Below, piece by piece: positions 494-16,450 of a stretch of 24,000 nt of DNA. The notes below the pieces were generated by a model. That model was not told where the DNA came from and did not search any database. It saw nothing but the letters and a program-made list of their open reading frames with translations. Source of the DNA: an uncultured Nitrososphaerota archaeon (GTDB lineage Archaea > Thermoproteota > Nitrososphaeria > Conexivisphaerales > DTJL01); contig CAWJIE010000004.1 in NCBI GenBank assembly GCA_963842885.1, positions 239,429-263,428 on the forward strand. Reading direction: 5' to 3'. The translations under genes and the position numbers were made by a program. Within the stretch, counting starts at the first letter, position 1. Each line of letters opens with the position of its first letter.

Positions 494-3073
494 ATGGCGG
501 TCCTTTCGTCAAGAATCAAGTCAGTCCGCAAGCGCGACGGCAGGGTTGTAGCGTATGACAGCAGCAAGATATCTGAGGCCATCTGGAAGGCCATCAAGGC
601 CACCGGTGGCAAGGACAGGTCGACGGCCGTCGAACTCTCGCTCAAGGTCAACGAAATCTTGGAGAAGCGGTTCGGGGAGGGGGCCGTGCCTTCTGTCGAG
701 GATGTGCAGGACGCCGTCGAGCATGTTCTGATAGAGGGAGGATATGCCAAGACCGCCAAGGCCTACATACTCTACCGCCAGAAGAGGGCCGAAATCCGCG
801 AGGAGAAGATGAAGATCCTCGAGAAATCGGACATCGACGAAGTAGACAAGAGCTTCGATAGCAACGCCCTCAAGGTCCTCAGGGCGCGATATCTGCGCAA
901 GGATGAGAACGGCCATGTCTTGGAGTCGCCCAAGGAGCTCTTCATGAGGGTGGCCCTGCACACCGCATTGGCCAGCATCCTCTACGATCCTAGGGTTTTC
1001 GACGTCAAGGGAGGACAGCCCACAAAGGAGGCCCCTGAAAACGTCGATCTCATGGCGTATGCGGACCTGGGCGTGGGAAGGTTCAAACTTAACCAGTTCC
1101 ACGTGGAAGCTCTTCTGCGTGTCTTCAAACGGTTCAACGCCTCCGGGAAGTCCAAGGTGTCGTGGCAGGAGCTGCTGGAGATGTTCAGGAGAGGGGATTT
1201 CACCTCTTACGAGAAAGAGGTGGATGACTACCAGACGCTCATGGTCAGCAAGCATTTCATGCCGAACACTCCGGCATTGGCCAACTTCGGCAACGTGTTG
1301 GGAATGGGCTCGGCCTGCTTCGTACTGGACGTCGCTGACTCCATAGACGACATAATGGAGACGCTGAGGAGCGCGGCGATAATATTCAAGGCTGGAGGAG
1401 GGGTCGGCTACAACTTCTCCAAGCTGAGGCCTGAAGGAGACTTCGTCAAGAGCACGTCGGGCATCGCTTCGGGTCCCGTCAGCTTCATGCGACTGTTCGA
1501 CACCATGACCGAAGTGATCAAGCAGGGAGGGATAAGAAGGGGCGCCAACATGGGCATCCTCAACATCAACCACCCCGATATCGAGAGCTTCATCAAGGCT
1601 AAGGAGGGGAACAAGGCGCTCAGGAACTTCAACATATCCGTCCTCGTACTGGACGATTTCTGGAATTACTACAACAAGAACGAACCGTATCCGCTGGTGA
1701 ACCCCAGGACACATGAAGTGACGCGCTATGTGAACCCCAAGCAGCTCCTCGACATGATCGCTTTCCAGGCGTGGGAGAGCGCCGAGCCGGGGGTCATCTT
1801 CTCCGACAAGGTCAACGAGTTCAACCCCTTCCTCAAGTCGCTCGGCCCCATAGTGACCACCAACCCATGCGGAGAAGTCCTGCTCTACCCCAATGAGTCA
1901 TGCAACCTGGGAAGCATCAACGTGGCGGCGTTCACAAAGGAGGACGACGATGGGAACGTCACCTTGGACTGGGATGGCCTGAGGGACACGGTCGAGATGA
2001 CGACCAAGTTCCTCGACAACGTGATCGACATCAACCACTACCCTCTCCAGGCTATCGAGGATATAACCCTGAAGACGAGGAAGATAGGGCTGGGGGTGAT
2101 GGGGATGGCCGACATGCTCTTCGAGATGGGCGTGGCGTACAACAGCGAGGAAGGGCTCAAGTTCATGGAGCGGTTGATGGAGTTCGTCAACTACCATTCG
2201 AAGAAGGCCTCCATCAAGCTCGCGAAAGAGCGTGGTGTCCTGCCGTCCTTCGAAGATAGCAGCTACAAGGAAGGGAAGTTGCCGTTCGGAGGTTTTGCGG
2301 ACCAGTCCTCCTGGCACTTCGACTGGAAGGGGCTGGCGGAGGAGATAGCGCGAGAGGGAGTGAGGAACGGTTACACCACCGTCATCGCCCCGACGGGGAG
2401 CATCTCGATGATAGCAGGATGCAGCAGCGGCATAGAGCCGGTCTTCGCCCTCGTCTACGAGAAGAATGTATCGATAGGGAGCTTCTACTACGTTGACACT
2501 GCCTTCGAGAAGGCGATGAAGAAGGAGGGTCTCTTCGATGACGACCTCCTCAAGCAGATAGTCTCCAACCACGGCAACATAGGGGGCGTGTTCTACCTGC
2601 CCGAGAAGATCAAACATGTCTACGTCACGGCCATGGATATCGGCCCTGAAGACCACGTCAGGGCGATTGCGGCCTTCCAGAAGTGGGTCGACTCCAGCAT
2701 CTCAAAGACGACAAACCTACCTGCTGAGGCCACCGTGGAAGACGTGAAGAAAGTGTACATGCTCTCCTACGAGCTGGGATGCAAGGACGTCACGGTGTAC
2801 AGGGACAAGTCCATAACGAGCCAGGTCTTGCGCACACCGGCGTCAGGAAAGGAGGAGAAGGGTCCTGGGCTGGCGCCGCAGAAGACCGGTCCCACCCCTC
2901 TCGCCGTGCACGCTCCCGTTTCGTCTCCGCTCCAGACCTTCAACGCCCGTCTGAGCTTGGATGGCAAGAACGGCAGCCTGACCAACTGCCCCTCCTGCAG
3001 CACCAAGTTGGAGTTCAAGGAAGGCTGTGCGACATGCCCCGGCTGTGGCTGGAGCCTGTGCGTCAGCGCCTAG
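494..3073 (+). CDS. nrdJ: Class II (adenosylcobalamin-dependent) ribonucleotide reductase with N-terminal ATP-cone and C-terminal zinc ribbon
   Basis: N-terminal ATP-cone (VRKRDGRVVAYDSSKISEAIWKA...AKAYILYRQKRAE). RNR core with the thiyl-radical loop TTNPCGEVLLYPNESCNLGSINV. The C-terminal CPSC-x12-CPGC tail is as seen in archaeal and Thermotoga class II enzymes. Length 859 aa, no intein-like insertion. Confidence 0.95.
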   Translation: MAVLSSRIKSVRKRDGRVVAYDSSKISEAIWKAIKATGGKDRSTAVELSLKVNEILEKRFGEGAVPSVEDVQDAVEHVLIEGGYAKTAKAYILYRQKRAEIREEKMKILEKSDIDEVDKSFDSNALKVLRARYLRKDENGHVLESPKELFMRVALHTALASILYDPRVFDVKGGQPTKEAPENVDLMAYADLGVGRFKLNQFHVEALLRVFKRFNASGKSKVSWQELLEMFRRGDFTSYEKEVDDYQTLMVSKHFMPNTPALANFGNVLGMGSACFVLDVADSIDDIMETLRSAAIIFKAGGGVGYNFSKLRPEGDFVKSTSGIASGPVSFMRLFDTMTEVIKQGGIRRGANMGILNINHPDIESFIKAKEGNKALRNFNISVLVLDDFWNYYNKNEPYPLVNPRTHEVTRYVNPKQLLDMIAFQAWESAEPGVIFSDKVNEFNPFLKSLGPIVTTNPCGEVLLYPNESCNLGSINVAAFTKEDDDGNVTLDWDGLRDTVEMTTKFLDNVIDINHYPLQAIEDITLKTRKIGLGVMGMADMLFEMGVAYNSEEGLKFMERLMEFVNYHSKKASIKLAKERGVLPSFEDSSYKEGKLPFGGFADQSSWHFDWKGLAEEIAREGVRNGYTTVIAPTGSISMIAGCSSGIEPVFALVYEKNVSIGSFYYVDTAFEKAMKKEGLFDDDLLKQIVSNHGNIGGVFYLPEKIKHVYVTAMDIGPEDHVRAIAAFQKWVDSSISKTTNLPAEATVEDVKKVYMLSYELGCKDVTVYRDKSITSQVLRTPASGKEEKGPGLAPQKTGPTPLAVHAPVSSPLQTFNARLSLDGKNGSLTNCPSCSTKLEFKEGCATCPGCGWSLCVSA

Positions 3074-3075
3074 GG

Positions 3076-5133
3076 TCAGGCAAGGGGAGCAGTAGCCCCA
3101 CCGCATAGGCCGCAGCGCTCAGTTCCAGCGACTTCCTTGTTTCCGCATTTCTTGCATAGAGCTATCAGCGGTCTGATAGTGAAGTGGGGGAGGCGCACAT
3201 TTGCCTTTTCGATGAGCTTGGCAGCGTCGTTCAGGTCGGTGATTGGAAGGGACAGCCGCGCAAGCACTCCTCCGCCGATACTGCCGTCCAAGTCGTCCAG
3301 CCGCGCACCTGTGGACTCCGAATCCAGCTCCTTCGAGTCGATGGAGAAGGCCTGGCCGTACTGCGAAATGCTGAGGTTCTTCATCTTGGCCCTCCCGAAC
3401 CTTTCGACATCGAGCTGGGGGAACCGGATGGCGCTGTCGTCGATGGTCAGCACCAATGCGAACTTCTCATCGCCCTCCTTGCCAGCCGTTTCGAGGTACT
3501 GGTTTGCCGAGATAATCGTCTTCTCCTGCAGCTCCGCCAGCTCCTTGGTGGACGAATCTGGGCTTACCAGCTTGAGCGAATCCTCGAGCCCTGTCAGGTT
3601 CACCCTCAACAGGGGAGACTCGGAGTAGAGGAGGTTGCTCAGGACGTCGAGGGCAGGGAGGAGGCCGTTCTTCATGTTGTTCTGTATGAGGCGGCGCCTC
3701 ACCCGTAGCGCGTTGACGGCGTTTTCGAGTTGCATCGTGACCCGGGCGCGGAAGTATACCTCGTCGTTGTGAGCGTCAAGAGCTATGCGCGGAAGGTTGA
3801 TCGATATAGAGTCCAGGACCACGGGGCCGCCCTTCTTGAAGTCGTCGACGCTCAGGCCCTGGAAGGTCCTCCGGCGGCCACTCCCCTTGGACAGGGATAT
3901 CATCCCGTTGTTCCTCGCTATCTCGGCCAGAGGCCTGTAGGCTGACTTCTCCAGTTTCTCGGAGTTGATGATGGCCAGACCTATCGAAGGTGATGGGGTC
4001 GCCTTGACGTAGTCCAAGTATCCTCTGAAGAGTGAGTTGAAGATGCCGCCGGTCGTCTTCGCTGCGTCCACTTCGAGCTCGACCTTTGGACGCTCCGAGC
4101 CCTCCGGATAGGCATAGGCCATGAGATAGAAGAAGGAAGAGTAACCCTTGGCGTCGAGGTCAAGCTTCTGAGCGAGATCTGTGAAGCCCGCAAGGAAGAT
4201 CTCTCTCCCCGCCTCGCGCGTCAGCAGATAGCTGAGCGACAATAGCTTGGTCAGGTTCTCTTCGTCCGTGTTGTCGTAGCCTTCTCTGGGCGTGTGAGGG
4301 AACTTCGCGCCCAGGCGTGACAGGGAAAGCGACTGGTCGCTGATGTTGATGAACAGAGCATCAGGACGTAGCCCCCAGTAGTTGACGTTGGCGATGTGGA
4401 TGTCGCCTGAAAGATGGGAGTCTACGACGTCTCGGGGCAGCTGTATCAGCATGAGGTACTCTGAGAGCACGGAGCCCGCCGTCTGGTTGAAGACGCCCTC
4501 AAGTCCGTAGGGCCCTTCGCCTAGCTTCTCGAGGTTCTCCGTTACGTCGTAGACGGGCATCCCTAGCCGGCTCAGGCGGTGCCGGTACTCCTCCAGACCC
4601 TCCTCGATCAGGATCGAGTTCACCAGCTCCCTGATCAGGGGGGCCGTGAGGTAGGCAGTCTGAAACTTGTAGATCCTGGATTCGGCTTCGCTGGAGATCC
4701 TCTGGGCCAGCTCCACGGGCATCCCGGCCTCGGTGACAAGAGAATGGATTATCTTGTCGGTGGTGAACTCCTCCATCCTGTGGCGGGAGCTTCGGACGAA
4801 GAGCCTTCCGCTCTCCAGGAGGGCCTGCTCCTCTATCTGCTTCGCCGCGTTCAGGACCAGCCGACCCAGCGTGGTGAGCATGTACTTCCGCTCGGCCCGG
4901 TTCTGAGCTATCAGGTTCTGCCTGAGCAGCTTCCGAAGATGGTAGGCGAACTTGCCCGACTCCTTCTTCGACTTGAATCCGGCCAGCGTCTTCAGCTCTG
5001 AATAAGTCATCGGCCCTTTGGCGTTGAGTATCTTCAGTATCTCAAGGCGGCTGGGGGAAGCGATGACGGAGAAGATAGTCTTCACGCGGCGAATGGAGAC
5101 CTGAGTGCTCATAGAACCACTTATTGACATCAC
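3076..5133 (-). CDS. wHTH (ArsR-like) + ATP-cone + NrdD-like (class III RNR-like) protein lacking catalytic Cys and the glycyl-radical motif; putative nucleotide-sensing regulator
   Basis: The N-terminus SRLEILKILNAKGPMTYSELKTLAG...FAYHLRKLLRQNLI looks like an ArsR/winged-helix domain. LFVRSSRHRMEEFTTDKIIHSLV...LIRELVNSILIEEGLEEYRHR looks like an ATP-cone. The body resembles NrdD (HLSGDIHIANVNYW vs G-IHIHDLD; VVLDSISINLPRIALDA vs the NrdD NLPRIAL motif; C-terminal CKKC-x10-CGLC zinc ribbon). The protein ends 8 aa after the ribbon with no RVxGY motif, and its only four Cys residues are those of the ribbon. Confidence 0.8.
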   Translation of the reverse strand: MMSISGSMSTQVSIRRVKTIFSVIASPSRLEILKILNAKGPMTYSELKTLAGFKSKKESGKFAYHLRKLLRQNLIAQNRAERKYMLTTLGRLVLNAAKQIEEQALLESGRLFVRSSRHRMEEFTTDKIIHSLVTEAGMPVELAQRISSEAESRIYKFQTAYLTAPLIRELVNSILIEEGLEEYRHRLSRLGMPVYDVTENLEKLGEGPYGLEGVFNQTAGSVLSEYLMLIQLPRDVVDSHLSGDIHIANVNYWGLRPDALFINISDQSLSLSRLGAKFPHTPREGYDNTDEENLTKLLSLSYLLTREAGREIFLAGFTDLAQKLDLDAKGYSSFFYLMAYAYPEGSERPKVELEVDAAKTTGGIFNSLFRGYLDYVKATPSPSIGLAIINSEKLEKSAYRPLAEIARNNGMISLSKGSGRRRTFQGLSVDDFKKGGPVVLDSISINLPRIALDAHNDEVYFRARVTMQLENAVNALRVRRRLIQNNMKNGLLPALDVLSNLLYSESPLLRVNLTGLEDSLKLVSPDSSTKELAELQEKTIISANQYLETAGKEGDEKFALVLTIDDSAIRFPQLDVERFGRAKMKNLSISQYGQAFSIDSKELDSESTGARLDDLDGSIGGGVLARLSLPITDLNDAAKLIEKANVRLPHFTIRPLIALCKKCGNKEVAGTERCGLCGGATAPLA

Positions 5134-12030: not shown

Positions 12031-12899
12031 TCAGACGCCTCCAAATGCAGAAAGGAGGGCGCGCCTGGCGGCCAGGGATGCCATCTCGCGCCGGTAGGCC
12101 GCCCGGACCCTTGAATCAACCAGGGGTTCCCGAAGGTTGGAGCCAACGGCCTTGGCGGCTTCGAGGAGCGTCTCCTTTGACAACGTCTTGCCTACCAAGA
12201 TGCCCTCGGCTTCGGTCAGCCGGACCGGGATGGCCGTGGCGGCACCGACGACTATGGTGGCCGATTCGCAGACGGAGGCGTGAGCTTCCAGCAACACCGC
12301 CGCGATGGCCGTCGCGAAGCTTCCTCCCTGGCCGTGAATGACTTCGTAGCCCCAGGGAATCCCAAAGGGCTTCGGAATCCTGATCTCGGTGAGTATCTCG
12401 TCGGGGCCAAAGCATTTGTGAACATCTCCTTGAAGAAATCGGCCGCCCTAATCACCCTCTTTCCCCCAGCACCGGTGGCGACCAGCTCGGCGCCCAAGGC
12501 AACAACGGCAGGCAAGTAGTGGGCGGCGGGATCGGCGTGGCAGAGGCTGCCACCAATGGTGCCCCTGTTTCTGACCTGATAGTCGCCGATGTCCTCCGCA
12601 GCCTTCGCCAGCATGGGACATCGAGCCCTTACGACTTCAGATGTGGAGAGCTCGTGATGCGTGGTCAGGGCTCCTATGGAGATCCCATCTTGGTTTTCCC
12701 TTACGTACGACAGCTTCCCCCTGAGGTGCTTGCCGATATCGACCAACATGGCGGGGCTGACCAGCCTGAACCTCATCAAGGGCAACAGGCTCTGGCCGCC
12801 TGCGATCACCTTCGCCCGGTCCGGATTCTCGACGATCAGGTGAAGCGCGTCTTCGATGGTGGCTGGCGCATAATACTCAAAGGCCTTTGGATAGGGCAT
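12031..12899 (-). pseudogene. coxM: FAD-binding medium subunit of the XDH/CoxM family, split by a 1-nt frame disruption near 12403-12406
   Basis: The N-part (12252..12899) carries AGGQSLLP and RNRGTIGGSL, then FFKEMFTNALAP. The expected continuation DEILTEIRIPKPFGIPWGYEVIHGQGGSFATAIAAVLLEA...VRAAYRREMASLAARRALL is in another frame (ending 12031). One extra C in the CCCC run (gene strand) would give LAPDEILTEI in a single frame. Confidence 0.85.
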
Positions 12900-13046: not shown

Positions 13047-13205
13047 ATGCCAGTCTGCGACGTCTGCGGCAAGGTCGTGAGCAGCCTGCGCAAGCACAAA
13101 GAAAGGGGGCGCTGCGGCAAGAAGGGGGCCAAGAAGGTCGCCGGCCCGATGCCCGGGAGCCCGCAGGAGACCCTTGCAAGATACAGCCGACTGGGCGGGC
13201 GTTAG
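13047..13205 (+). CDS. Candidate 52-aa basic protein with a C-x2-C-x9-H-x5-C zinc-finger-like motif (below the ORF-track size cutoff)
   Basis: ATG at 13047, TAG at 13203-13205. Translation: MPVCDVCGKVVSSLRKHKERGRCGKKGAKKVAGPMPGSPQETLARYSRLGGR. CDVCGK...LRKH recalls C2H2-type fingers. It lies in the divergent intergenic region next to coxM. There is no homology support and the ORF could be fortuitous. Confidence 0.3.
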   Translation: MPVCDVCGKVVSSLRKHKERGRCGKKGAKKVAGPMPGSPQETLARYSRLGGR

Positions 13206-13306
13206 TGCCCTCCCATCGTTTCGACGGTTCCGGAGCTATCGACTGGAAGGCGTAATGGCTGATCAGATTCCTGACGGATAGTCATGAACCTATCTGACTG
13301 AAGAGA

Positions 13307-13401
13307 TGGTAGCGAGGAGTGGATTTGAACCACTGCTCTGCGGGTGTCTCAACCATCGGTTTATGAGCCCGCCGGGATAGGCCTGGCTTCCCCACCTCGC
13401 T
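13307..13401 (-). tRNA. Initiator-type tRNA-Met (CAU) with a 16-nt intron at the canonical 37/38 position, CCA encoded
   Basis: The reverse complement reads AGCGAGG-TG-GGGA-AGCCAGGCCTA-TCCC-G-GCGGG-CTCATA[AACCGATGGTTGAGAC]A-CCCGC-AGAGC-AGTGG-TTCAAAT-CCACT-CCTCGCT-A-CCA. The A1:U72 pair and G29-31:C39-41 are initiator hallmarks. The intron (13346-13361) forms a bulge-helix-bulge: central helix CUCA/UGAG, 3-nt bulges UA|A and AC|A, inner helix ACC/GGU. Confidence 0.9.
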
Positions 13402-13460
13402 AAGAATGACTATTCAAGGTTTGCCAATCGTTCGGTATTAAAGTTTTGTGGAGCTGCCCG

Positions 13461-14768
13461 TCAGAGTTCGTAGGGCAGCGTCGCAGGCTTGCTAAGATGG
13501 CGTCGAGCTCGGGGCGGAACGGCGTAGAGTCCAGGAGAGATGGCTCTCTCGAGCTTCACCTTGATTGGCTGCAACGACATGGACTTGAATTTGCAGGCTG
13601 GGCACTGGAATCCCTTCCCCTTGCCTTCCGATTTCATGGTCTTCCCGCACTCGGGGCAGCCGGGATTCCTCGTGACCTCCAAGGTGGTCAGGGAGAGGAC
13701 CTCCATCTTCTCGACGTTGATGGTCAGAGGGGTGACCGGTTTCTCCTTGACGCCGCCATAGACTCTCACAGCATCGCCGGGCACAAGCGCCCTGCCGACG
13801 TCTCTGAAGCCCCTAGTGGGCTCGTAGATGGCACAGTCGACGGAGCCGCTGTCGTCTTTTATCCTGAATATCAGGTGGCCGCCGCGGATGACATGGGGCT
13901 TGGCGCACACGATGCCGGAGACCTTGACGGTGGTCAGAGGCGTTATCTTCCCAGCCTTGGCGTCGGAGATGTGGGCGTCGGTGGCTTGATTGGTTTCGTA
14001 AATCTGGAAGCGTTCGACGGGCTGAAGTGGCTTCACCAAGCTGAAGGCTCGCTCCAGATAGTGCGGTTTGAATGCTCGAATGCCGAAGTAGACCGGGCAG
14101 GGAGTGTGCGGCATTATCCTGACCTCGCCGGTGTTCTTGTCCAGGTTGTCGAAGGTGAAGGGGTAGGTGGCGTCGTTCATGGCAACTATGGACCCCAGCT
14201 CCATCTCTCTCCGGGTCCCGACGAACTGGGGGGTGCGATAGGCTATCAGCTCGTATGTGCGGCCGTATTCCAACCGGTTGCCTATCGCGGCTAGGGCGCC
14301 GATGATGCCGCGACCCAGCTTGAACTTGTGGACCTCTATTCCCAGCGAGTCCGCCACCGCGTCCGCATCCTCGATGGTCATCATCTCCTTGACCACCCGA
14401 GAGGAGAACTCGCCGAGGGAGACTGGTATCTCTTCGCCCACGAAGAAGGCGACGCCAGACTCCGTCCCTTCGTCGTCCAGCATGGCCATCTCCTTGACGC
14501 GTTTGAGGACCAGCTCCTTGATCTGGGGCATGATGGCCGGAGAGGCGCGGAACTTGAACGACAGGGCGGCGTTCCCTCTAGTCTTGAAGGGGCAGTTGGG
14601 GTTCAGTCGGATGAGCCGGGGGAAGCCCTCCAATTCCAGGCCGAAAGTGCTTTCAATCTCGTCGATGAGGACGGCCGCGAGATAAGTCGTGCACATGCCT
14701 TCGGAGGAGTCTGTGTCGTCCAGACCGACATGGAGGAGGGGAAGCAGGGTCTCCTTCTTTGACGCCAA
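13461..14768 (-). CDS. tiaS: tRNA(Ile2) 2-agmatinylcytidine synthetase
   Basis: The N-terminal LHVGLDDTDSSEGMCTTYLAAVL is the TiaS signature. 435 aa with an OB-like middle region and a C-terminal zinc ribbon CPECGKTMKSEGKGKGFQCPACK. TTG start. Confidence 0.92.
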   Translation of the reverse strand: MASKKETLLPLLHVGLDDTDSSEGMCTTYLAAVLIDEIESTFGLELEGFPRLIRLNPNCPFKTRGNAALSFKFRASPAIMPQIKELVLKRVKEMAMLDDEGTESGVAFFVGEEIPVSLGEFSSRVVKEMMTIEDADAVADSLGIEVHKFKLGRGIIGALAAIGNRLEYGRTYELIAYRTPQFVGTRREMELGSIVAMNDATYPFTFDNLDKNTGEVRIMPHTPCPVYFGIRAFKPHYLERAFSLVKPLQPVERFQIYETNQATDAHISDAKAGKITPLTTVKVSGIVCAKPHVIRGGHLIFRIKDDSGSVDCAIYEPTRGFRDVGRALVPGDAVRVYGGVKEKPVTPLTINVEKMEVLSLTTLEVTRNPGCPECGKTMKSEGKGKGFQCPACKFKSMSLQPIKVKLERAISPGLYAVPPRARRHLSKPATLPYEL

Positions 14769-14790
14769 GGGTCGATTCTCCCTCTCCAGT

Positions 14791-14803
14791 ATTGATTATT
14801 TGA
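14791..14803 (-). promoter_or_regulatory. AT-rich TATA-like element upstream of tiaS
   Basis: The minus strand reads TCAAATAATCAAT, 23-35 nt upstream of the TTG start at 14768. This fits an archaeal TATA box driving a leaderless or short-leader mRNA. It is a position and composition argument only. Confidence 0.25.
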
Positions 14804-15105
14804 GCATATGGTTGGGGGAAAAGTCGTCTAACCCTCCCTTATCTGCGTCCGCCCACGCCAGCGCTCCCGGCTTGGTCGATTTCATGCATGTCCAGCGACG
14901 GAGGCTTTGAACTAGCGGTGTGATGATGGGAAAGTGCGGCTGAGGGCTACCAGTGTCATTCATGCTCTCCTCTCAGTGCCTTGGGCTGTCTTGAGCGGAA
15001 GGTTGGCATCCCAAACTTACGTAGATTGGTCAGGAGTGAAAGCTTCCGAGTCATCCTGGTCTTGATCCTCTGCTGTCATGGCGAGACTTGTATGCCGGCC
15101 AAGGC

Positions 15106-15342
15106 GACACTCTTTGACACCCCTTACGGGAGGATTTGCGGCCCACCAGACGACGGGCTGATGATTTCTTTGGCTCGTTAACAGGCTGTCTTGACACCCT
15201 CCCCACGGCACTCAGAGCCTGTATAGTGAGTTTTTTGAGGTGTCAAAAGGTGTCGACAGGGTGCCGGCCAAAGTGTCGACACGGTGTCGACACCCCGTCA
15301 ACAGGGTGTCGCGCAAGAGCCGACACCCGCCATGACGGTGTC
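15106..15342. repeat. Dense array of GTGTC/GACAC half-sites, including tandem GTGTCGACAC palindromes
   Basis: GACAC starts at 15106, 15116, 15193, 15278, 15289 and 15322. GTGTC starts at 15240, 15250, 15273, 15284, 15306 and 15338. GTGTCGACAC occurs at 15273-15282 and 15284-15293 (tandem, 1-nt gap). A 12-bp perfect palindrome GGTGTCGACACC spans 15283-15294. GGGTGTCG (15304-15311) and CGACACCC (15321-15328) form an inverted repeat with a 9-nt spacer. Many copies are extended to RGGGTGTC. Confidence 0.85.
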
Positions 15343-15609
15343 AGACCAAGGGCAGGGGAAGGCCGGGTCCTTCCAAGTCCGACAAATAGGACTCGAACCC
15401 AATTCGGTACGAACCCCTTCGGGCCCACCACTCGGATCCCAATCCTGAATCAGAGTTAGTTCCTATCCTCCTGACGCCAGTCAAATCCCCATTTCTGCTG
15501 GGGGGTTCTTGCTTGGCCTCTCGGTCGACATCGGAGCCAGTTATGCAACCTTTTCATCTATGCTGATTGAGTCTAATGAATAGAAGGGAAAACTCGTCAG
15601 AACAGGGGC

Positions 15610-15843
15610 CTACTCTTCGACCACTATCATCGTCAGAGTGGAGCGTACCTTCTCCAGTCGCCTTATGTGCCAGGTGATGGTCTCCTTGACCTTCTCCATC
15701 GTGTCGGCTTCGACCTTCAAGATGAGATCGTACACACCGTACACCACGTAGACCTCCGTGACGTTTGTTATCTTCTTCACTTCGGCGACGAGCTCCTCCT
15801 CCGCGCCCAAATCGGCGTTAATCAGGACGAAAGCCTTTGGCAA
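15610..15843 (-). CDS. Stand-alone Lrp/AsnC-type ligand-binding (RAM) domain protein, no DNA-binding domain
   Basis: A 77-aa protein, AFVLINADLGAEEELVAEVKKITNVTEVYVVYGVYDLILKVEADTMEKVKETI..IRRLEKVRSTLTMIV. It shows the beta-alpha-beta-beta-alpha-beta RAM pattern of archaeal stand-alone RAM-domain proteins. Confidence 0.8.
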   Translation of the reverse strand: MPKAFVLINADLGAEEELVAEVKKITNVTEVYVVYGVYDLILKVEADTMEKVKETITWHIRRLEKVRSTLTMIVVEE

Positions 15844-15906
15844 TACTATCTGCCTAGCAGATTAATAGAAGGTGATTTTAAGCATTTGGGAGAATCGCAG
15901 AGAAAA

Positions 15907-16450
15907 ATGAGCGATGAAGAGCCGGGAAAAGCTAAACTGTTCGTGCTACACCTGCGGCAGGACGATCCCTCCAAGTGCACGGCGTCGAAGCTCAGGCGCC
16001 TGGGCAAGGTAGGCTTCCTCTCCAGGCACAGCCAACGCGGGCTGCTGCTCGACCCGTACTGCGATACCTCCATTTCCCGCACCGACAGGGAGACGGTGCT
16101 CTCGGAAGGCCTCACGGCGATCGACGCCAGCTGGAAGAAGGCCGTCGAATCGTTCAAAGGCATCAGATGGAGGAGGCGATCGTCGGCGGGCGCTCCCCTA
16201 TCTCGTCGCGGCTAACCCGACCAACTACGGCATCCCGGTGAACCTCTCGACCGCCGAAGCGCTGGCCGCGGGGCTCTTCATCGTGGGGCTCGGCGAACAG
16301 GCGGAGGAGGTCATGGGCTCTTTCAGGTGGGGTCACTCCTTCTTCGAGCTCAACCTGAAGTACCTGGAGGCGTACCGCAGGGCCGATTCCAGCTCCGGCG
16401 TCGTCGAAGCCCAGCGGGCATTCATGAGGGAGCTGGGCTTTGCAGTCTAA
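15907..16450 (+). pseudogene. tsr3: 16S rRNA aminocarboxypropyltransferase Tsr3 (DUF367), reading frame disrupted around 16160-16195
   Basis: Frame 1 from the ATG at 15907 gives KLFVLHLRQDDPSKCTASKLRRLG...LLLDPY...AIDASWKKAVESFKGIR. The conserved continuation RRALPYLVAANPTNYGIPVNLSTAEALAAGLFIVG...FRWGHSFFELNLKYLEAYR is in frame 2 and ends at 16450. Skipping one nt near 16168 gives FKGIRGGGDRRRALPYL, which matches the family spacing. Confidence 0.85.

Follow-up and report, generated by a model that had tools for sequence, protein, structure and literature searches.

Evenly phased palindromic sites in a lineage-specific spacer of a Conexivisphaerales archaeon: a possible orphan binding array

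Why does one short palindromic motif stand twelve times, evenly phased, in a 240-bp non-coding stretch of an archaeal chromosome? The copies lie between tiaS and a stand-alone RAM-domain gene, in the 24,000-nucleotide stretch of DNA analysed here (the window), and a first reading, made from the letters alone, had proposed either a multi-site operator or a replication origin. Our tentative answer, to which we assign a probability of roughly 45%, is that the copies form an orphan platform, iteron-like in its layout, where double-stranded DNA is bound by a dimeric protein encoded elsewhere, with an ancestry in a mobile element. The two genes that frame the spacer were both confirmed:

13461–14768, minus strand: tiaS, flanking gene
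15610–15843, minus strand: stand-alone RAM-domain gene, flanking gene

Anatomy of the spacer and the array

The sequence-only reading saw no convincing ORF from 14769 to 15609, and our analysis agrees: GC3 periodicity is flat from 14830 to 15600, compared with values of 0.8–0.9 in tiaS and the RAM gene. A Pfam search of nine small spacer ORFs gave no match at E ≤ 10, and for a 107-aa spacer ORF a search of 5.8 billion proteins found no homologue; on these three grounds a hidden small gene was rejected. Also rejected was a 55-aa ORF (14796–14963, minus strand) with a GAGG-like motif before its ATG, in which the strain differences (3/3) fall at codon positions 1 or 2. An Rfam search of the spacer returned no family at the gathering threshold or at E ≤ 10, and the C/D-box-like TGATGA at 14920 and 15158 stand, by reading, without partner boxes, so that a known RNA was discarded as well; near 15390 the minus strand reads GGTTCGAGTCC, which resembles a T-loop, and neither ARAGORN nor Rfam identifies it as a tRNA fragment. 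The spacer surrounding the array also holds scrambled short duplications, with TGCCGGCCAA, GGCTGTCTTGA and TTGACACCC each present twice.

Direct counting places 12 GTGTC/GACAC cores in 15106–15342. Thirteen had been claimed for these 240 bp; the thirteenth, a GTGTC at 14953, belongs to the spacer but falls short of the 240 bp. The other 31 cores of the window are spread over 23.7 kb, giving 0.31 expected per 237 bp, which upholds the estimate that chance alone would supply well under one, and the Poisson probability of 12 or more cores per 237 bp is ~1e-15. When the window was shuffled with dinucleotides preserved (n = 300), the densest 237-bp stretch held a mean of 3.2 cores and a maximum of 6. 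The window-wide total (43 cores) matches the shuffle expectation (44.5), and the excess is therefore one of local clustering, not of enrichment throughout the window. Exact GGGTGTC/GACACCC copies are concentrated in the same place, with 5 of the window's 7 falling within the array, whose parts are as follows:

15106, 15116, 15193, 15278, 15289 and 15322: the six GACAC cores
15240, 15250, 15273, 15284, 15306 and 15338: the six GTGTC cores
15105–15121: left arm of a 17-bp inverted repeat, CGACACTCTTTGACACC, with two GACAC-oriented half-sites 10 bp apart
15184–15199: imperfect dyad GGCTGTC-TT-GACACCC, including the third left-hand GACACCC site, found by reading and a 1-mismatch motif scan
15219–15240: AT-rich patch tgtatagtgagttttttgag, which separates the left and right site clusters
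15239–15255: right arm of the 17-bp inverted repeat, GGTGTCAAAAGGTGTCG, with two GGTGTC-oriented half-sites 10 bp apart
15249–15311: tandem array with a period of 11 bp and 5.6 copies (about six units), consensus GGTGTCGACAC (Tandem Repeats Finder)
15337–15342: last half-site GGTGTC, which keeps the phase of the tandem array, standing 32 bp (about 3 × 11) past the 15306 half-site

The core of the tandem array is degenerate, at 64% matches in Tandem Repeats Finder, and comprises three good dyad units (centres 15254/55, 15277/78 and 15288/89), the remainder being degenerate or half units; a motif scan places 12-mer palindrome matches with starts at 15249, 15272 and 15283. The six GTGTC-oriented cores keep an 11-bp phase with a vector strength of 0.96, and this coherence, taken with the 11-bp tandem period, would set the sites on one face of the helix. 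A direct-repeat family of three 20-nt copies, spaced 23 and 22 bp apart, adds a super-period of 22–23 bp.

Several elements picked out by the earlier reading are present. The two 10-bp palindromes GTGTCGACAC are both perfect and lie 1 nt apart (15273–15282 and 15284–15293), the second extending into the perfect 12-bp palindrome GGTGTCGACACC at 15283–15294; the 8-nt inverted repeat GGGTGTCG-n9-CGACACCC at 15304–15328 is a split dyad with 100% complementarity; and GTCGAC sites occur at 15252, 15275 and 15286, with another at 15524. Copies left of 15200 are GACAC-oriented in 3/3 cases, and the G-run extension noted earlier sits on the outer side of the motif in both orientations. The candidate recognised element is a half-site, (G)GGTGTC(G/A), often placed head-to-head to form the dyad GGTGTCGACACC. 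Strand symmetry of the motif, together with an outer G-run in both orientations, is as predicted for recognition of double-stranded DNA by a dimer.

Sites of the opposite orientation lie 40–135 bp to the left of the tandem array, across a short patch rich in AT and T-tracts, and the arms of the 17-bp inverted repeat (15105–15121 and 15239–15255) are 88% complementary with 117 bp between them. Left and right clusters are separated by a 40-bp gap without sites (15200–15238), and the AT-rich stretch between them is, as had been claimed, the GC minimum of the segment (30% over 20 bp, 40% over 40 bp), with about 1–2% of the window's stretches of equal size matching or exceeding it in AT content, and AT-richer ones existing elsewhere in it. 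The patch abuts the 11-bp tandem array, giving helix-phased tandem repeats beside an AT-rich region, as in an iteron-type origin.

A lineage-specific segment at a variable locus

Comparison with other assemblies delimits the DNA that carries the array:

14805–15566: lineage-specific non-coding segment of 762 bp, carrying the array and edged by 5-bp direct repeats TTGAG (14800–14804 and 15567–15571)
14808–14831, plus strand: 8-codon stub ATGGTTGGGGGAAAAGTCGTCTAA, homologous to the start of a membrane-protein gene that is divergent from tiaS in L150 and L151
15414–15566: RAM-proximal part of the segment, 70–88% identical to L025, which diverges beyond it

A near-identical 841-bp spacer is found in three assemblies, namely the window, L024 (99.0%) and L519 (97.3%), and as the latter two are independent assemblies with the same spacer, gap-free, an assembly artefact can be dismissed. 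Across these strains the 239-bp array varies at one site (15304, where L024 has A for the window's G) and the 559 bp of spacer around it at 11, a difference that is suggestive but not significant (one-sided Fisher p = 0.08, three strains). The sequence-only reading had made the interest of the array depend on its conservation in close relatives: the array is kept in L024 and L519 at 97–99% identity, and is missing in relatives whose tiaS protein is 76–93% identical. It is missing from at least 11 relatives in which the flanking genes are the same, and the locus takes at least four other states. No array lies between the RAM gene and tiaS in L001–L003, L027, L148 and L150–L154; the RAM–tiaS gap is only 57–75 bp in L148, L027, L153/L154 and L003, and in other relatives the spot is taken by 316 bp of unrelated spacer, by a PLP-enzyme gene or, upstream of tiaS, by a gene for a membrane protein. 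Neither L152 nor L150 has an array of a different motif at this locus. The intergenic spot between the RAM gene and tiaS is a hot spot for gene gain and loss in close relatives.

The start ATG of the 8-codon stub lies within a CCATATG common to L149–L152 in the alignment, window positions 14769–14888 match L151 at 68.6% identity (E = 1.5e-11), and at its tiaS-side end (CCATATG...) the segment corresponds to where a resident gene starts in L150–L152. A decayed membrane-protein gene (as in L150/L151) was nevertheless rejected as the source of the spacer, which holds the 8-codon start stub and no further remnant, and so was a decayed copy of the PLP-enzyme gene that fills the spot in L001/L002, a tblastn search of the spacer being empty. 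The flanking TTGAG/CTCAA is present once in L148, at the junction, and reads CTGAA in L027. As a mark of insertion the 5-bp flanking repeat is ambiguous, because the 'inserted' end is partly the decayed start of the older resident gene, and microhomology-mediated deletion could account for the pattern equally well.

Searches for a mobile parent were negative within their scope. BLAST of the segment against 72,556 plasmids and 50,697 phages gave no similarity, and the 24-kb window holds no further copy of the segment, no mobile-element gene (rep, par, integrase or transposase) in Pfam scans of its sizeable ORFs, and no candidate gene for a binding protein or repressor. A MITE was rejected, the segment having no terminal inverted repeats and a best end-to-end inverted match of 6 nt, below the shuffle mean. 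The 27-aa gene end of the L025 element, considered under the idea of an IS200/IS605-TnpB origin, has as a very short query no Pfam match. A metagenome scan for paired GTGTCGACAC produced at least 120 matches, to unrelated bacterial and eukaryotic repeats, with this lineage not among the matches listed.

Another reading is that nothing is bound here, slippage or hairpin-mediated duplication having multiplied a palindromic 11-bp unit in the junk DNA that remained when a gene was lost. Consistent with this, the array core is a degenerate tandem repeat (64% matches), the surrounding spacer is rich in scrambled short duplications, the locus is a hypervariable gene-loss spot, and the array is not conserved past near-identical strains. 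However, slippage yields contiguous direct copies, whereas here copies of opposite orientation stand 40–230 bp off and a 17-bp inverted repeat links the two sides; moreover, the same outer G-run marks copies of both orientations, and strain differences in the flanking spacer contrast with perfect dyads that remain intact. We consider a non-functional repeat unlikely.

Regulation, RNA and replication

Two further features bear on whether the array acts on a transcript:

14795–14804, minus strand: tiaS TATA box, CTCAAATAAT, conserved in all relatives in the upstream alignment
15486–15514, plus strand: terminator-like hairpin followed by the T-run TTCTTGCTT

The proposal of a multi-site operator for a dimeric protein survives in part. 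A binding-site array fits the anatomy, with its symmetry, 11-bp dyads and clustering, and is supported, whereas the operator role finds no support: at the array there is neither a promoter nor a gene under regulation. Comparison of upstream regions revealed a TATA box of type YTTAAAW common to twelve promoters in the window. A motif scan found no box of this type in or beside the array, where the AT patch reads TGTATAGTG, and placed weak TATA candidates at 15481 and 15573, both outside the array. An operator would overlap or abut a regulated promoter; the nearest TATA box of the genome's type is that of tiaS, about 300 bp from the array and the sole promoter-like element of that type on that side. 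As this box is conserved in relatives that lack the array, tiaS does not need the array.

A local operator could still be imagined, controlling either a spacer promoter that drives a small gene missed by annotation, for an RNA or a peptide (such as a plus-strand transcript that starts just right of the TATAG/T-run patch and ends at the 15486–15514 hairpin) or the tiaS promoter at a distance. The one-turn-spaced dyads, which follow immediately on the only AT-rich patch, are reminiscent of repressor roadblocks or operator clusters, the terminator-like hairpin and its TTCTTGCTT follow about 250 nt downstream on the plus strand, and phage contig L156 has GTGTCGACAC dyads just 5′ of what reads as a sigma-70-like promoter, dyads that may themselves be operators. 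Against such control stand the lack of a YTTAAAW-type TATA box near the array, spacer ORFs that show neither coding signal nor homologues, and, for tiaS, the 300 bp to its TATA box, and we regard local regulation as improbable. The hairpin at 15486–15514 differs between the window and L025; by eye its pairing was judged to be kept, and RNAalifold does not predict the pair.

Alternatively, the locus may act as a single strand, as a structured non-coding RNA or DNA element of roughly 250 nt in which a stem of 15104–15122 with 15238–15256 is followed by two hairpins. It folds far better than shuffles (plus strand −108.7 kcal/mol, z = −4.5; minus strand z = −3.2), but such z-scores arise from any inverted-repeat DNA, and on both strands. 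The stems of an RNA are not expected all to share one sequence, unlike the motif here, and several stems built from one sequence would invite misfolding. Given also that there is no Rfam family, even at E ≤ 10, no promoter found, and no diverged homologues (other copies are only 97–99% identical), a structured element is decidedly improbable.

The suggested likeness to an archaeal replication origin is not supported. A scan at ≤3 mismatches for ORB/mini-ORB-like TTCCAGTGGAAAC, used as the consensus, found five sites window-wide against 5.8 expected and none in the spacer. Pfam scans of the sizeable ORFs found no Orc1/Cdc6, Cdt1/WhiP or Rep domain, in keeping with the earlier statement that the window has no orc1/cdc6 gene. 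The GC-skew profile proposed as a check has no inflection at 15 kb, although 24 kb is short and the skew noisy; the site lies between two genes, tiaS and RAM, that point the same way; and the syntenic conservation expected of an archaeal origin is not seen, relatives with 76–93% identical tiaS lacking the segment. Inverted clusters do flank an AT-rich patch, but this patch, 20 bp at 30% GC, appears too short for a typical unwinding element. That the array is the chromosome's replication origin is very unlikely. Archaeal origins consist of an AT-rich region flanked by ORBs and adjoin their initiator gene (PMC4010727), and no such gene lies within 24 kb here. Archaeal chromosomes do gain origins through capture of extrachromosomal elements (PMC4010727), and a captured secondary origin, or an ORB-type origin with unusual boxes and a remote initiator, could draw on the inverted G-run clusters on both sides of the AT patch and on iterons at 11/22-bp spacing beside it, a plasmid-origin layout; set against the objections above, its chances are slim.

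An orphan binding platform and its counterparts

In the orphan binding platform that we favour, a dimeric sequence-specific protein, perhaps of the ribbon-helix-helix or small winged-helix kind, would sit on one dyad per helical turn, and its dimers could polymerise cooperatively along a single face of the helix, with the inverted left-hand sites allowing the AT patch to be looped or bent. Such cooperative dimer occupancy and looping or bending is the mode of action of iteron or centromere arrays in plasmids and phages. The partner protein may be encoded elsewhere in the genome or on an extrachromosomal element, or may have been lost. The array would have come with about 0.5–0.76 kb of unrelated non-coding DNA, displacing a variable gene at the hypervariable RAM–tiaS spot, in the recent ancestry of one species-level lineage. 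A recent replacement in a single such lineage makes it most likely that the array is a cis-element derived from a mobile element, be it origin iterons, a partition site or a repressor operator cluster, and it may still be used in trans or be a young relic.

Several known systems share parts of this layout. In the parC site of plasmid R1, five 11-bp iterons stand on each side of a 39-bp promoter region, 159 bp in total, with one ParR dimer per iteron (PMC2241845). The window array resembles this type II partition site, served by a ribbon-helix-helix ParR, in having two repeat clusters of 11-bp period about 40 bp apart, and where ParR binds cooperatively, with one dimer per 11-bp unit on one helical face, the predicted array offers about six 11-bp units. 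In contrast, parC repeats are all direct, whereas the two sides of the window array are inverted and several of its units are themselves dyads; parC includes the promoter of parM and parR, the genes that follow it directly, whereas the window array has no such gene or promoter adjacent; and parC belongs to a plasmid, while the window array occupies a chromosomal site in an archaeal host. Iteron-type plasmid and phage origins carry Rep-binding direct repeats beside an AT-rich region, with inverted copies for autoregulation. The array shares their 11/22-bp spacing, an AT-rich patch directly beside the repeats and extra inverted copies at a distance, but differs in having no rep gene and a very short AT patch, and there is no evidence that the locus is or was a replicon. 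Archaeal ORB origins, bound by Orc1/Cdc6, likewise have inverted repeats with G-rich extensions on either side of an AT-rich stretch (PMC4010727); unlike them, the window has a motif unrelated to known ORB cores, sites packed at one-turn spacing, and no nearby initiator gene, conservation in relatives or extended unwinding element.

The same motif recurs in viruses. IMG/VR contigs resembling pelagiphages HTVC023P/HTVC027P carry 4–5 copies of GGGTGTCGAnA, a roughly 100-bp AT-rich spacer and 4–5 copies of TnTCGACACCC, with the same 11-bp unit and period as the window array (GGGTGTCGACAGGGTGTCGACAGGTGTCGACA in L562, GGTGTCGACAGGGTGCCG at 15249–15266 of the window) and, as there, two inverted clusters around an AT-rich spacer. 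The viral clusters converge (GGGTGTCG ... CGACACCC), whereas those of the window have the opposite relative orientation, and the viral arrays, from bacterial viruses of 33–41% GC, have an exonuclease gene on one side and a 106-aa gene on the other. No homologues of pelagiphage proteins were found in the window. With a control hexamer, phased arrays in viral contigs are just as numerous and just as dense, which suggests that the shared motif is probably convergent, and in the cultured HTVC027P, which is related to those phages, this place is occupied by a different repeat. Common descent with the pelagiphage arrays was rejected on these two results, and we treat the match as analogy, not homology.

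A bolder form of the binding platform would have the array at work in cis for a mobile element, or a system that organises the chromosome, not yet seen in Conexivisphaerales, such as a partition or origin site served in trans by a protein from a plasmid or virus of the same cells, or a captured secondary origin; we think this quite unlikely. To our knowledge, no iteron- or centromere-type system has been described before for this deep-branching, non-ammonia-oxidising thaumarchaeal order, and we know of no plasmid, partition system or sequence-specific regulator–operator pair described for it. Literature retrieved under the genus name consists only of ecological and comparative-genomic papers, and that under GTGTCGACAC only of cloning primers with SalI sites. 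If the array does work in this way, it would be the first iteron/centromere-type system for the order, with GGTGTCGACACC as a handle for its protein partner; if it is only a relic, its worth would be as a marker of past acquisition. The array (search form RGGTGTCGACAYY) provides a specific probe, a 12-bp perfect dyad at one-turn spacing from a lineage represented by metagenomes only, with which its binding protein could be isolated or the extrachromosomal element of origin traced.

A phased array of GTGTC half-sites

The source is a Nitrososphaerota archaeon related to Conexivisphaerales (GC ~58%), and its nearest tiaS matches in species-representative genomes, all MAGs labelled Conexivisphaerales or Nitrososphaerota, share 78–80% protein identity. 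The array occupies part of the 841 bp that separate tiaS from a RAM-domain gene; as both genes are on the minus strand, this spacer follows the RAM gene and precedes tiaS. Among the genes nearby are housekeeping ones: ribonucleotide reductase, CO-dehydrogenase/xanthine-dehydrogenase-family subunits, pyruvate:ferredoxin-oxidoreductase-type enzymes and an ABC transporter.

Features of the locus (window positions)
13307–13401, minus: tRNA-Met (CAT)
13461–14768, minus: tiaS, with four TiaS Pfam domains
15105–15121 and 15239–15255: 17-bp inverted repeat, CGACACTCTTTGACACC / GGTGTCAAAAGGTGTCG, bracketing 117 bp
15249–15311: tandem array (Tandem Repeats Finder), period 11 bp, 5.6 copies, consensus GGTGTCGACAC
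15610–15843, minus: stand-alone RAM-domain gene, 77 aa
16490–16784, plus: archaeal RNase P RNA

Twelve GTGTC/GACAC cores fall in 15106–15342, where the 31 cores in the remaining 23.7 kb predict 0.31 per 237 bp (Poisson P ~1e-15) and the densest 237-bp stretch in 300 dinucleotide-preserving shuffles held at most 6. The sequence-only reading had counted thirteen cores in 240 bp; twelve stand, and the thirteenth, at 14953, lies outside. Window-wide the pentamer is not enriched (43 observed, 44.5 expected), and the excess is a single local cluster, holding all three TGTCGACA octamers and five of the seven exact GGGTGTC/GACACCC heptamers of the window. The tandem 10-bp palindromes, the 12-bp palindrome, GGGTGTCG-n9-CGACACCC, the GTCGAC sites, the orientation bias of the copies and the AT-rich patch between the two site clusters, all described in the same reading, were verified.

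Six GTGTC-oriented cores are in phase at 11 bp (vector strength 0.96, versus 0.06 at 10 bp and 0.32 at 12 bp), and a repeat search returned a super-period of 22–23 bp in three 20-nt copies. Good dyad centres occur at 15254/55, 15277/78 and 15288/89; the units that separate and follow these dyads are degenerate. Aligned in one orientation, all copies yield the half-site (G)GGTGTC(G/A), with the G-run on the outer side in every copy, on either strand, a symmetry that would be predicted for a dimer reading double-stranded DNA. The array is a genuine, highly non-random set of repeats of protein-binding type.

A variable slot, probably refilled recently, between syntenic genes

The RAM–tiaS neighbourhood is syntenic across the order, with hypervariable intervening content; among close relatives the slot is a gene-turnover hot spot. 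In the relatives' loci the gap is only 57–75 bp (L003, L027, L148, L153, L154), or is occupied by a 413–418-aa gene that reads as a Cys/Met-metabolism PLP enzyme (L001, L002), a membrane-protein gene divergent from tiaS (L150, L151) or an unrelated 316-bp spacer (L152); L025 has in common with the window only the RAM-proximal 120–200 bp and then diverges. No GTGTC cluster or other repeat array was found at this slot in the loci compared (L001–L003, L025, L027, L148, L150–L154). Identity of the tiaS protein to that of the window is 93% in L149, 91.5% in L148, 90% in L150, 87% in L151 and L152, and 77–82% in the rest. The 841-bp spacer occurs in only three assemblies, namely the window and those of two near-identical strains, L024 (SRR18214612; 99.0%, no gaps) and L519 (ERZ27247850; 97.3%). 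The check for conservation in related genomes proposed earlier thus came out negative: the array is confined to these assemblies, and the segment is missing from close relatives in which gene order is the same.

A stretch of 762 bases (14805–15566) is present in the window but not in L148 and L027; it is flanked by a 5-bp direct repeat that L148 has once, and looks like an insertion with target duplication. The tiaS-side end of the segment, CCATATG..., is common to L149–L152, and in L151 it gives the divergent membrane-protein gene its start codon. Of this gene the window retains an 8-codon stub; the segment has no terminal inverted repeats. Because of the resident-gene stub and the missing terminal repeats, we read the locus as a variable gene slot that was probably refilled in the window's lineage with ~0.5 kb of unrelated non-coding DNA, and consider clean transposition less likely. 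Under either history, the array is young and lineage-specific.

The 200 bp adjoining the RAM-gene stop (15414–15608) are 70–88% identical to L025 751–950, and a hairpin at 15486–15504 differs between the two with pairing kept, by eye; this stretch could be a 3′ UTR element or small RNA, as read from two effective sequences. Divergence between L519 and the window over 13116–16105 is mosaic (tiaS 0.7%, spacer 0–2%, RAM gene 3.4%, Tsr3 side 3.8%), reaching 14% with indels on the tRNA-Met side (13116–13460), suggesting inter-strain recombination around the locus.

Candidate functions and known arrays

We consider it rather probable that the array is bound at the DNA level, operator and origin variants included. 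Our preferred reading, at a probability of about 0.45, is an orphan iteron-, centromere- or operator-like cis-element of mobile-element ancestry that this hypervariable locus acquired recently. Its binding partner would be a dimeric protein with its gene elsewhere, occupying one dyad every 11 bp, or may since have been lost. In the centromere parC of plasmid R1, a 39-bp promoter region separates two groups of five 11-bp iterons, and one ParR dimer binds each iteron (PMC2241845). The window array matches it in period, unit number and central gap (15200–15238, 39 bp), but differs in orientation and gene context.

Scanning viral contigs for three phased GGTGTC copies recovered a family of 4–9 kb contigs (33–41% GC) with 4–5 × GGGTGTCGAnA, a ~100 bp AT-rich spacer with a TTAGAATNATTCTAA palindrome, then 4–5 × TnTCGACACCC. 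These two inverted clusters of 11-bp period lie at 3670–3870 in L279, 2900–3065 in L286 and 1985–2200 in L562, and also occur in L539, L544 and L547 (all IMG/VR contigs). The unit is that of the window: GGTGTCGACAGGGTGTCG in L562 is one base apart from GGTGTCGACAGGGTGCCG at 15249–15266. The contigs come from relatives of Pelagibacter phages HTVC023P/027P (exonuclease 44–49% identical), as fragments that carry small terminase and endonuclease VII. Their array is flanked by the exonuclease gene on one side and, on the other, by a 106-aa gene whose function is not known (phrog_25889); it may serve as an origin, a packaging site or an operator not described before. In cultured HTVC027P the corresponding spot is taken by another repeat, typical of a binding site co-evolving with its protein. 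The common motif was rejected as evidence of shared ancestry with the phage arrays: with a composition-matched control hexamer, phased arrays in viral contigs were equally many and equally dense, and phage-protein homologues are absent from the window and archaeal loci. The phage arrays are therefore an analogy only, phased iterons of this form being a device widespread among mobile elements. Two unrelated bacterial-type contigs use the same GTGTCGACAC dyad: metagenome contig L055 (GC 0.65) has about eleven 21-bp iterons, CGTGTCGACACGCTTTTTCTA, at 2480–2720, and viral contig L156 has dyads at 2630–2700, immediately ahead of a sigma-70-like promoter.

It is unlikely that the array is a local operator serving an unannotated transcript. 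The multi-site operator for a dimeric protein proposed from sequence keeps its strand-symmetric, binding-type array, but has neither promoter nor gene there: the YTTAAAW-type TATA box common to twelve upstream regions of the window recurs in the spacer only at the tiaS promoter (14795–14804) and, weakly, at 15481 and 15573, with none at the array in a motif scan of the spacer. The ORF-poor character of the spacer was upheld, third-codon-position GC reaching 0.8–0.9 in both flanking genes, tiaS and the RAM gene, and staying flat (≤0.74) across 14830–15600; none of nine small spacer ORFs matched Pfam at E ≤ 10, and the longest (107 aa) had no homologue among 5.8 billion predicted proteins.

We give a functionless palindromic tandem expansion the same low standing. 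Across three strains, one variable site falls in the 239-bp array (15304, a G of a G-run) versus 11 in the 559-bp flanking spacer, a difference whose direction fits constraint and which is not significant (one-sided Fisher p = 0.08).

A structured RNA is quite improbable: the array region folds better than shuffles (z = −4.5 and −3.2), but does so on both strands, as any inverted-repeat DNA would, several different stems would have to share one sequence, and the spacer has no Rfam match even at E ≤ 10.

Least probable is a replication origin, a possibility that the sequence-only reading had raised from the layout. An archaeal origin is an AT-rich region with ORBs on both sides and an initiator gene next to it (PMC4010727). 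The 24-kb window has no Orc1/Cdc6, WhiP or Rep gene (the absence of orc1/cdc6 had been noted correctly), no ORB-like motif and no GC-skew turn at the array, skew being noisy over so short a stretch, and the AT patch measures 20 bp (30% GC), with AT-richer stretches elsewhere in the window. Together with the missing segment in close relatives, a conserved chromosomal origin is excluded; a secondary origin that was captured recently and is served in trans is improbable, nothing speaking for it.

Neighbouring genes

TiaS modifies the CAU anticodon of tRNA-Ile2; the tRNA-Met (CAT) gene, 60 bp downstream of tiaS, is 95 nt long and, given this length, probably contains an intron. A Tsr3-type gene (16S rRNA aminocarboxypropyltransferase family; 15907–16447, plus) is split by a +1 frameshift near 16173–16175, residues 1–89 and 90–180 of the L153 orthologue aligning in different frames, and is either a pseudogene or an assembly indel error. 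The CO-dehydrogenase-type flavoprotein (12031–12899, minus) is likewise divided into two overlapping ORFs (FAD_binding_5, 12252–12899; CO_deh_flav_C, 12031–12297), versus a single 288–289-aa gene in L148 and L153, and this second apparent frameshift suggests indel-prone sequencing of the MAG. A 685-aa protein (3076–5133, minus), whose gene is convergent with that of an 859-aa ribonucleotide reductase large subunit (494–3073; class II by our reading), has, besides an ATP-cone, a winged helix (HTH_20 / DUF7347) at its N terminus and a region like NrdD (anaerobic ribonucleotide reductase) at its C terminus; it is unusual for a reductase-like body to be fused with a DNA-binding domain.
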